The position numbers and the translations under genes are program-made. Below are positions 11,102-15,573 of a DNA stretch of 64,000 bases, one piece after another (the first letter of the stretch is position 1; every line of letters starts with the position of its first letter). This stretch comes from Paecilomyces variotii (Eukaryota), in assembly GCA_004022145.1 (NCBI GenBank), contig RCNU01000002.1, one strand, 5' to 3'. The notes below the pieces were generated by a model. It was given only the letters and a program-made list of their open reading frames with translations, did not search any database and was not told the DNA's origin.

Positions 11102-14100
11102 CTATTGTGAGAGTGGGATTTCCGGGGCGGTAGTGAACTCGTCGCGCTCAGGCATAGCAGGCCGAGTCTCGTTCGAAGACTGTTCAATGCCCTTCCCTTC
11201 ATCACCGATGGGTGATACCACGCCCGAAGCACAGTTAATGGACCGCACACTTGCTGACATCCTCGAATGATCGGGTTCTAAACCATCAGTGAGAGGACCG
11301 GACTGTCCCGTATTGTCAGACTCTTGTCGGTATATGGAGTGGACTTCGTGAGACAGGCCGCTCTGTCTCTTGGCTTTCTGTCCGATAACGCCGGGGGCTC
11401 CAATGATCGCGATCGTGCTTGCGTTTGGATCTGGGCCCCTATCTCCATCAAGACTGGGTGCAAATCCATCCGACACGATGCTCATGCTTTCTCCCATGTC
11501 CGAAGTCACAGTAAGAGTAGGTCCCTGTGATCCTGCTGCCGAGGGCGGTCTATATTCAGCACGCAACGACGACCCTCGAATTAACGGAGCCACGCCCCTG
11601 GCGTTACGGAGAGTTTTAGTGCTTGTATTATCATCAGTGATGACAGATCTCGAATCGCCCGCATCAACATCGGTTAGGATGTAGGATGCCGATATATGGG
11701 AATCGGAAACAGGAGGTTGCAATGATGTAGTGTCGGTAGCCCCAGCAGAAGTTGCCGCAACAATACCACCGTCGGCCCCATTCTGTGTGATCGTAGTCGG
11801 AATACTGGATTCTCCAGAGATACTGGCTTGCCCAGTATCACTCACGGCACGTCTTCGACTAACAGATCTGCTTCGACCAGCTGATGAGAGTGAAGCCGCA
11901 TCCCTTTTCTGTAGGGATTTACTCCGACGACGGGATGTAGTCGCAGCTAGAACCGTTGGCGCATCACCACCGGTGATTCCGATGTTCGCTGTTTGGTCTG
12001 CCTGTCCCGCTCTGATCTCTCTTCGCAGTGTCCTCTCATCGTGTTTAGTGCTCCAAGCGTTCCACATCATCACGAGGGGGCTCCTTCGATGACGTCTCTT
12101 GCTCGTACCCAGAAGAGCCGACCGTCTGCCTGCCAGTGCACTTGGAGGTGGAGTTTCACCATCAAATCGCTCGATACCAGCTGCCAACTCTTTGATGCGT
12201 GCACTCTGGACCTTGAGCTTCTCTTTTGCGAATTTGTGATCCCATTCTTTCTTGGCTGCTATCCATTTCTTCACAACGTCAGGATTGATGGCACCAACCT
12301 TCTCAGGAGGTTGCTGCAGAGCTTCAAGTGACTCGGGAGGATCCAGAGGGTAGATGTGGGCTTTCGTGTCGACTCTCTGGCGGATCATGTGGTGGTGGAA
12401 TGGTGGCAAAGGATCACCGGCTCTCCCAACGGAAGAGGGCATCGTGTTAGTTCCTTTCCGCTCTGAATGGTCAGTGTTATGGTCATCGGTATCGGTGCCA
12501 CTAGTTGAGATGACGGAAACATCGTCGTCATCAAGGATGTCGATCTCTGTCCTCTGTGCACGAGCAAGTGCCCAAGCTCCAAACTGTGCAATTGATCTGA
12601 ACATGTACTTGGCAGGTCTTGTAAAACTCAATGTTGGTGCCACATGGCATAGGCCATCCCACACCTGCAACTGCACAAACGTAGGTGCGTATTTATTGAG
12701 AATCTCTCGGTTCGGATCATACTCGTTGAGATATACGTCGTTGGGAGGGTATTTCTTTGGATCGGCCGCCTTGTGCGCGAGGTAGATCTGTTCATCGCGC
12801 AACATCTCACCGCCTCCTGTAAGAATCAAAAGGGGAGGAAGACCACCAAGCGACGGTTGCAGGACAGGAGATACGAGTGGGTGAGAGATAAGTTGGTTTG
12901 TCGTGTACATTTGAATCTGATCCTTGATCTCCAGCTCCTTGTCGTCCACGATAACCCGCAAGTTGTCAGCAGGTTTGACCGGCGCTTGAGGTTCTTCTGA
13001 TGGTGGCACTTCATCTTGATGACCTGGATATGCGAAGTGCGCCGCCTTCTGCTCTTCGGAAAGATTAGTTTGACGCACGGTATAGCCGTGAACGTGAGCC
13101 TCGTGCGACTCCCTGTTATCGTTTGAGGTGGCCGGCTCCAGGCCCTTGCTTTTAGCAATTTGGTCGTGAGCACCTTGCTCAATCGCAAGCATATCATCTG
13201 CATTGGGAGGCGGCCATGCAGCAGATGGTTTCTGCATGAAGCCGTAGGGCGGAATATAGTCTCCAGGGTTGTCTTTGACTATACTCGGAAAGGAATGTGT
13301 TAGGTCAACCCAAGGAGATATAAGTATACCGCCAGCTGGGAGCGGTATTCCACGGTCACGAATTGTAACCAACATACTATAGAATTCATCAGCTATGGAA
13401 CTTCCCTTGTATGATTCGGAGAGACTCACGACACCACCATTCCACCGCCAGCAGAATCTCCGGCCAGGATGATCTCCGTCGGATCATGTATGCTGAGAAG
13501 ATATAGATACGCTGCTAGGCAGTCATGAAGTGCACAAGGAAATGGAAATTGCGGCGACAAGCGGTAGATGGCTGTTCTCTGTTAGTTTCGTCATGTTATG
13601 CATAGTTACATCTGGAACTCACTGCAACTAGTTAGCTAAAGCTGACAACGGATCATAAACTGGGTTCCAGGGCCATACCGTGCAAATACTCGAGCTTTCA
13701 GCTTCCGTGCATGTCGCTGCATCTGATACCGATGCGTCTCCATGCCACCGAAGAAATATGCTCCGCCGTGAACATATAGCATGACGCGCTTGCAATGAGC
13801 ACCAGAAGCTTTGTTTTCATTGTAATCGCCTCGCACCTCGATCCATTCCGCCTTCAGATCTTGCCCGGGTAATCGCCATTGCCACCACTTCTCACCCCCA
13901 ACGCGCTTGACGCCCTTGGGACCCAACTCATCAATCACCGTCTTTGCCGCCGTCGCCAGATACTCCTCGGGTATCGTCACGACCTCCGACCTGACCCAGT
14001 GCGGACTTGGAATCGATTGATTTGTGAAGGCCTGGAGGTCTTCGACTGTATGATACGATGCATAACGGAGAAACTCGCGGAGGACATGCAGGGCCTCGTC

Positions 14101-14305
14101 GTACGATAAATGATGGGTAGGCTTATGGCGCAGTGATTTACGATGAAGGTACTGTCAAGGCGATCCGGTTAATACTCACTCGAGCATGTATAGGGTCGTC
14201 AACTGGGCCGACAGAGACACTTTCAGGGGTACTCACATGGGATATAAATGTCGACACTACTGTAGGGGCCACAGCTGCACCCAGTGATAGTGTATGTATC
14301 GTCAT
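11102..14305 (-). CDS. lipS: Alpha/beta-hydrolase (HSL-like lipase/esterase) with a long disordered C-terminus; probable lipS orthologue
   Basis: Exons 14305-14237, 14151-13680, 13571-13430 and 13376-11102. Motifs [51 protein letters not shown] and CHV. The gene symbol is tentative. Confidence 0.85.
13572..13679 (-). other. [D1,2] spliceosomal twin intron (stwintron)
   Basis: Minus strand reads G | GTATGG...GCTAAC...TTGCAG (internal intron 13678-13622) | TGAGT...ACTAAC...AACAG (13621-13572). Removing the inner intron creates a GTGAGT donor. Removing both restores the frame FA-P-IYRL. Confidence 0.85.
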
Positions 14306-15573
14306 AATGCTGGTCTTTCCAAAGCACACCTCGAAACAGAACGAGCGGAGGACCTATTTAAAGGGAAGTTTGTATTCGAGGGACTCAATGACACTGTGCA
14401 TGTGGAACAATTGCTTTGCTGTTACTTGGCGTTCACGGGGCAATGCGACAAACAGTCCAGCTATACGCGCTCCAAAAGCAGAGCAGTGTCCAAAAAGGAG
14501 GGAAAGGGAGATCTTTGATATACAAAAGGGACTGAACCTGGACGGGCAAACATGGAACCAAGTTCGCCTGGGCCCCTGGCGCCGAAGCAGGACGAAAGGA
14601 ACAACTGGGGAGAAGAGAGACTACGGTTGGTCGGATCAGCAGTTGATCCGGTTGCACAAGATCTGGGGAAGGAGCGACTCAACCCTGGCGTCGGTGATGT
14701 CATGCGGCTTGCTCCTGCCAGGTTGGCGGGAGAGCTTCTTCGCGCCTTCCTCTTTCGAGTGTAGCTTTGTTTACGTCACGGTCGCTCTTTCCTTCCCGCC
14801 ATCGCAGTCGTTGATTGCCCTTTCCCAGCGTTTGTTTGCTTCCGACCAACAGTTGGCACCAGCTTCATCCGATCATCGATGCGAGGAAATCTTGCAGAAG
14901 ATGCTTTGTATTCCAGAGCAACTATGTGGCGTCCTCTTATGGTAGATTATGTAGACGATATGCCGATATGCTCCAGTTGATATTTCCCCCCCTGCATGCC
15001 GGAATCCACCGAACGTTCCTGCGGGTGGTGGTGAAGAGGGTGTATGACTGAATATAGGCAACTGACTTTGTAGAAACAACACAGATATCCCATTTGGCCA
15101 CATCCTAATATTTCACAGTTATCGATCCATATTTGTGGAAGAGATGCGCCAGAACTAGTTAGACATCAGATGACGGCATAACTGTATTGAAGGTTAATAT
15201 TGATAGAACTACACATAGTACTTCCTACAGAGCAAAAGCGCCAATATGTGTCCAACAGAAATAAGGGACTGGACCATGTGCTTTGCTACACTGGCCAGAA
15301 CATTGACATTATGGTTATTCACTGTGATAATATTATTAGGATGAAGGCCCAAACCATATGTCCTGATATAGTTATCCCTGCTCTAACGCCTAGCCTTCCT
15401 GAGACAAACGTCAAACGTCGCACGAACCACGGCACCGTTCCCATCCAGCTCCGCTAGCGTTTTGTGATAGCATCCATCCCGCACCATAATAATAACTCCA
15501 ACTCATTGTTCCCAACAACATCGACGGACTAGAGGGTCTGTTATACTACAGACTCGAAAACAAGCTCGCCACT

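Follow-up and report, generated by a model that had tools for sequence, protein, structure and literature searches.

The lipS orthologue of Paecilomyces variotii carries what is very probably a two-step [D1,2] stwintron

We analysed a 64,000-nucleotide stretch of contig RCNU01000002.1 (assembly GCA_004022145.1), hereafter the window, from Paecilomyces variotii, whose sexual state is named Byssochlamys spectabilis. The results indicate with high confidence that lipS of this fungus, an orthologue of the Aspergillus gene, contains a [D1,2] spliceosomal twin intron (stwintron), which occupies 13679-13572 on the minus strand of the window and is removed in two steps. The mature junction left by its removal and the GG..AG ends of the missing segment were observed directly, as was the conservation of the nested layout in relatives. 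The order of the two steps in P. variotii we infer from that layout, from its conservation and from splicing intermediates of the A. nidulans and A. niger orthologues. The stwintron itself is already known, since the phenomenon, the gene, the position and an entry from the species complex were all published in 2017.

The original prediction, made from the letters alone, had described this nested intron on the minus strand, and when the sequence was re-read and the gene rebuilt, all of its coordinates and motifs proved correct. Exon 2 of lipS ends with ...TTT GCA C at 13680 on the minus strand, and is followed by three parts:

13679, minus strand: lone G, the first base of the external intron donor, split off from the rest by the internal intron
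13678-13622, minus strand: internal intron, 57 nt, with donor GTATGG, branch element GCTAAC at 13636-13631, 6 nt and CAG
13621-13572, minus strand: remainder of the external intron, 50 nt, starting with TGAGT, with branch element ACTAAC at 13586-13581, 6 nt and CAG

A complete standard intron begins directly after the first G (13679), and its excision rebuilds a standard GTGAGT donor. Together, G13679 and 13621-13572 make up a 51-nt external intron with this donor, its own branch element ACTAAC and the acceptor CAG. A G at position 6, as in the internal donor GTATGG, is less common in fungal donors.

Removal would proceed as follows. In the first step, the spliceosome would excise the 57-nt internal intron (13678-13622) by means of its own donor, branch point and acceptor, bringing G13679 against TGAGT at 13621 to form the standard donor GTGAGT. 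In the second step, the 51-nt external intron would be removed through the branch element ACTAAC and the CAG ending at 13572, and C13680 would be fused to CC at 13571-13570 to give the codon of Pro181. The whole [D1,2] layout pattern was searched on both strands of the 64-kb window, and its single match lay exactly at 13679-13572. Among 200 dinucleotide-preserving shuffles, none was matched by the strict pattern, while the loose pattern gave a mean of 0.175 matches, with at least one match in 30 of them. As real introns are missing from shuffled sequence, the RNA evidence described below carries more weight than this control.

The lipS gene was rebuilt by coordinates in a script from the minus strand, the region inspected being 12300-14700. 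The resulting model consists of the following parts:

14305-14237, minus strand: exon 1, 69 nt, with ATG at 14305-14303 and His23 as the last codon
14236-14152, minus strand: intron 1, 85 nt, a standard intron (GTGAGT...CAG)
14151-13680, minus strand: exon 2, 472 nt, whose C13680 is the first base of the Pro181 codon
13679-13572, minus strand: the whole [D1,2] stwintron, 108 nt, in phase 1, inserted after the first base of the Pro181 codon, CCC
13571-13430, minus strand: exon 3, 142 nt, with a conserved 10-residue stretch and the GDSAGG nucleophile motif
13429-13377, minus strand: intron 3, 53 nt (GTGAGT...TAG), in phase 2, splitting a Ser codon
13376-11102, minus strand: exon 4, 2275 nt including the stop, with the remaining hydrolase domain and a long C-terminal extension

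Translation of the joined exons (2958 nt) gave a protein of 985 amino acids with a single terminal stop, in which the joining of 13680 to 13571 reads Val-Phe-Ala-Pro-Ile-Tyr-Arg. When the exons were scanned separately against Pfam, Abhydrolase_3 (PF07859) matched exons 2, 3 and 4, and the motifs HGGAY and GDSAGG were present in the product at family spacing. Judged from its sequence, the product is a putative hormone-sensitive-lipase-like alpha/beta hydrolase; the word lipase is likewise a putative name in the paper on lipS (PMC5639578). The PF07859 domain occupies the N-terminal half of a much longer protein, which is the arrangement of the lipS orthologue group, and that group is described as having one orthologue per species.

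No single standard intron at this site yielded the conserved protein. As had been predicted, splicing in one step from GTATGG to the CAG at 13572 caused a frameshift, with 51 stops in the translation of the spliced model. Retention of the external intron introduced a stop five codons after Ala180.

Public sequencing runs were then consulted for the junction. Those matching 12400-14350 filled 24 rows, of which 20, from eight studies, hold the stretch or part of it, and four runs from four studies, all of them in the form of assembled contigs, were compared over 12900-14350. In run X1 (study P1), a 4577-nt contig joins 13376 to 13430, 13571 to 13680 and 14151 to 14237, with all three introns gone and 0 differences over the aligned parts, and it continues unbroken across the part of exon 4 at 12900-13376. 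In run X3 (study P3), a 228-nt contig joins 13571 to 13680, and another contig joins 14151 to 14237. The contigs of run X5 display the intron 1 joint (14151/14237) only, their cover leaving out 13537-13732, which includes the stwintron site. The RNA label of X1 and X3 is no more than a software guess, and we took them as RNA because introns are cleanly removed in them (all three in X1, intron 1 and the stwintron in X3). Two runs, each from a different study, thus contain RNA-derived contigs with the predicted mature junction 13680/13571.

The ends of the skipped segments set the stwintron apart from its neighbours. Both ordinary lipS introns (1 and 3) have GT..AG ends in the contigs; intron 1, which is skipped in three runs (X1, X3 and X5), reads CT..AC on the plus strand, that is GT..AG on the minus strand. 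The skipped 108 nt, on the other hand, read CT..CC on the plus strand, corresponding to GG..AG on the coding strand (X1 and X3). The cut at 13571/13680 is unambiguous, with no letters fitting both sides, and the mature mRNA accordingly lacks a segment whose GG..AG ends fit no single standard intron. A separate observation concerns run X2, an RNA library from a food-fermentation metatranscriptome, in which a 14,957-nt contig carries 12900-14345 unspliced and with 16 differences, probably by DNA carry-over or as an unspliced transcript of another strain. Much of lipS is also present in runs from food fermentation studies.

The GG..AG ends of the mature joint could be read differently, namely as those of a single 108-nt intron whose donor is a non-standard GG and whose acceptor is AG, excised in one step, the internal signals being incidental. 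In keeping with such a reading, a joint skipping only 13678-13622 was absent from the contigs of the four runs, assembled contigs being of a kind that drops rare forms. We nevertheless regard one-step removal as very unlikely in view of the orthologous loci. When metagenomes were scanned with the protein encoded by exon 2, 11 loci were obtained, 10 of which reach the junction (L011, ending inside exon 2, was omitted). In three of these ten (L003, L004 and L005), the nested layout G/GT...CAG/TGAGT...TAG was found at the identical codon. The printed sequences of L004 and L005 across the stwintron site are identical. L003 has an internal intron of 47 nt and an external one of 56 nt; the corresponding lengths in L004/L005 are 59 and 49 nt. 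An alignment was made of the three distinct stwintrons, those of the window, L003 and L004. The exon end, the G/GTA start, part of the branch element and the CAG/TGAGTT junction proved invariant, and the remainder of the intron sequence has diverged. An internal donor, branch element and acceptor followed by TGAGT are therefore kept in three of the ten loci (as two different sequences) within otherwise diverged introns. If the segment were removed in one step, nothing would constrain the internal CAG/TGAGT, so that its conservation supports two-step splicing. Moreover, intermediates lacking only the internal intron were obtained by RT-PCR and sequenced in A. nidulans and A. niger (PMC5639578), which again argues against removal in one step.

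The other seven loci are intron-free at the site and read straight through as Ala-Pro-x-Tyr-Arg or Ala-Val-x-Tyr-Arg. In two of them, L006 (1223-1330) and L007 (2974-3080), an intron of standard appearance, GTGAGT...CAG, lies about 60 nt downstream of the stwintron site, after ...Cys-Gly-Leu-Tyr-Asp, a position that is empty in the window.

A single standard intron from GTATGG at 13678 to a GAG acceptor ending at 13577 deserves attention because it leaves an open frame with one terminal stop. It is in frame, as had been predicted, and replaces Pro by Arg-Thr-Ala, adding two residues. The corresponding joint, which the original prediction had named as evidence against a nested intron, was seen in the contigs of none of the four runs, as opposed to the 13571/13680 joint in two of them. 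The GAG also sits just 5 nt beyond the branch A. Protein relatives speak against this splice as well. Of the 8000 sequences scored in a search with exon 4, 2046 were relatives at E <= 0.001; the list of the best 120 is headed by the P. variotii protein P0001 at 98% identity, and among the matches listed, the relatives are 545-1279 amino acids long and have PF07859. The landmarks HGG(A/G)(Y/F) and GDSAGG are both present in 93 of the best 120 of the 2046 relatives. The distance between them is 67 residues in the stwintron model and in 82 of the 93, and 43, 45, 72, 75 (four times), 76 (twice), 78 and 81 residues in the remaining 11. Use of the GAG acceptor would give 69, a spacing that does not occur among the 93.

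The fit to the PF07859 profile points in the same direction. Residues 124-156 of exon 2 correspond to profile positions 1-33, exon 3 to positions 37-85 and exon 4 to positions 129-191. With residue 156/157 of exon 2 at position 33 and residue 2 of exon 3 at position 37, the positions flanking the junction leave room for exactly one residue, the Pro, whereas the GAG acceptor demands a two-residue insertion in the profile. We therefore consider it extremely unlikely that this single intron accounts for the site. Splicing to the GAG may occur as a rare isoform, a form that contigs drop. It is equally unlikely that the public model P0001 is correct. In this model exon 2 extends into the internal intron as far as a weak donor, GTCAGC, which is paired with the CAG at 13572 (a splice that adds 11 residues and changes Pro to Ser). 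Although its frame is open and it is the deposited annotation, its joint is absent from the RNA contigs, its landmark spacing is 78 where 82 of the 93 relatives have 67, and it also has a 17-residue hole in exon 4 that is contradicted by the X1 contig.

Of the 82 relatives with a spacing of 67, 79 have Pro at the junction itself, two have Val and one has Cys. Replacement of this Pro by Val (L009, L010, P0010 and P0024) or Cys (P0039) was noted in a few intron-less relatives, so the junction Pro is common rather than invariant. The Penicillium proteins among the relatives are intron-less, in line with PMC5639578.

The nested intron in P. variotii agrees closely with the published one. The original prediction had pointed to a stwintron reported in an Aspergillus putative lipase gene called lipS, and this lead was sound, as the gene in the window is a lipS orthologue with a [D1,2] stwintron at the corresponding codon and in the same phase. 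Flipphi et al. (2017; PMC5639578) reported for A. nidulans and A. niger that lipS, a putative lipase gene, is interrupted by a [D1,2] stwintron. This stwintron is in phase 1, falls in the Pro codon of Val-Phe-Ala-Pro-x-Tyr-Arg, and is presented as single, ancient and conserved in position. According to the same paper, exon 1 of lipS measures 69 nt, with His23 on one side of its end and Tyr24 on the other, exon 3 measures 142 nt, and the third intron lies within a Ser codon. Comparison with these published positions, which had been proposed as a check, showed a match in stwintron position, phase, exon 1 and exon 3.

The likeness to A. nidulans lipS (AN7524) and to that of A. niger ATCC 1015 thus extends from the shared gene, intron position and phase to a GTGAGT donor interrupted after its first base by the internal intron, the His23/Tyr24 boundary after 69 nt, the 142-nt exon 3 and the placing of intron 3 in a Ser codon. 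With A. niger, P. variotii further shares the internal spacing of GCTAAC, 6 nt and CAG. The stwintrons differ in size, being 108 nt (57+51) in P. variotii, 99 nt (53+46) in A. nidulans and 109 nt (52+57) in A. niger, and apart from the elements mentioned the intron sequences of P. variotii and the Aspergillus genes are unrelated. They differ also in how they are documented, the intermediate having been demonstrated in Aspergillus lipS, whereas the stwintron of P. variotii is known from its mature junction.

The suggestion that the locus might be a new instance, if not a new phenomenon, was too generous. Table S2 of PMC5639578 already has an entry for Byssochlamys spectabilis (BAUL01000201, gene c9708-6496, stwintron c9080-8972). 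Compared by lengths and offsets, the stwintron lies 628 nt from the ATG in that entry and 626 nt in the window, is 109 nt long as against 108 nt, and sits in a gene span of 3213 nt as against 3204 nt. These length differences suggest that the BAUL01000201 record is probably from another strain. The [D1,2] stwintron families of Hypoxylaceae (PMC9024468 and PMC12403724) are likewise nested U2 introns with the donor split between bases 1 and 2, but they are described in the abstracts as recent, repeated, species-specific insertions with similar sequences, unlike the stwintron of lipS.

For biology, the gain from the P. variotii stwintron is small. We believe that, among the sources consulted, the X1 and X3 contigs are the first transcript support for the mature junction outside Aspergillus, the cDNA in the available text of PMC5639578 being from A. 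nidulans and A. niger only. It is conceivable, as speculation and with little probability, that an obligatory two-step removal acts as a checkpoint on lipS expression. If it did, the amount of working enzyme would be tuned by a slow or conditional second step, given the early stop met when the external intron stays in, or by splicing to the in-frame GAG. Such tuning could account for the persistence of the nested layout in three fungal classes, where it has not collapsed to an ordinary intron.

The practical value is more tangible, as the stwintron can be found correctly from raw sequence alone and deposited models of the gene are wrong. The expectation that gene finders would mis-model the site was borne out by P0001, the deposited P. 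variotii model, and by ten further models among the 93 relatives spanning the site, which either carry false residues or have lost the 46-residue exon with the catalytic GDSAGG motif. P0001 equals the stwintron model except in two blocks, the stwintron site and the hole in exon 4. At the latter, P0001 is without 17 residues at about 13329-13279 on the minus strand, and the lost stretch holds a conserved 13-residue motif. The gap is apparently a false 51-nt intron call, GTATAC...TAG; an intron at about 13329-13279 is unsupported by RNA, because the X1 contig is unbroken over 12900-13376.

Models found wrong at the stwintron were P0002, P0083, P0093, P0094, P0096-P0099, P0103, P0106 and P0117. 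Their errors consist of 5-14 false residues inserted or of skipping of the GDSAGG-bearing 142-nt exon, the latter being lost entirely in P0002 and P0103. The taxa with mis-modelled lipS include Paecilomyces lecythidis, several Aspergillus species, Penicilliopsis, Rhynchosporium and Xylographa.
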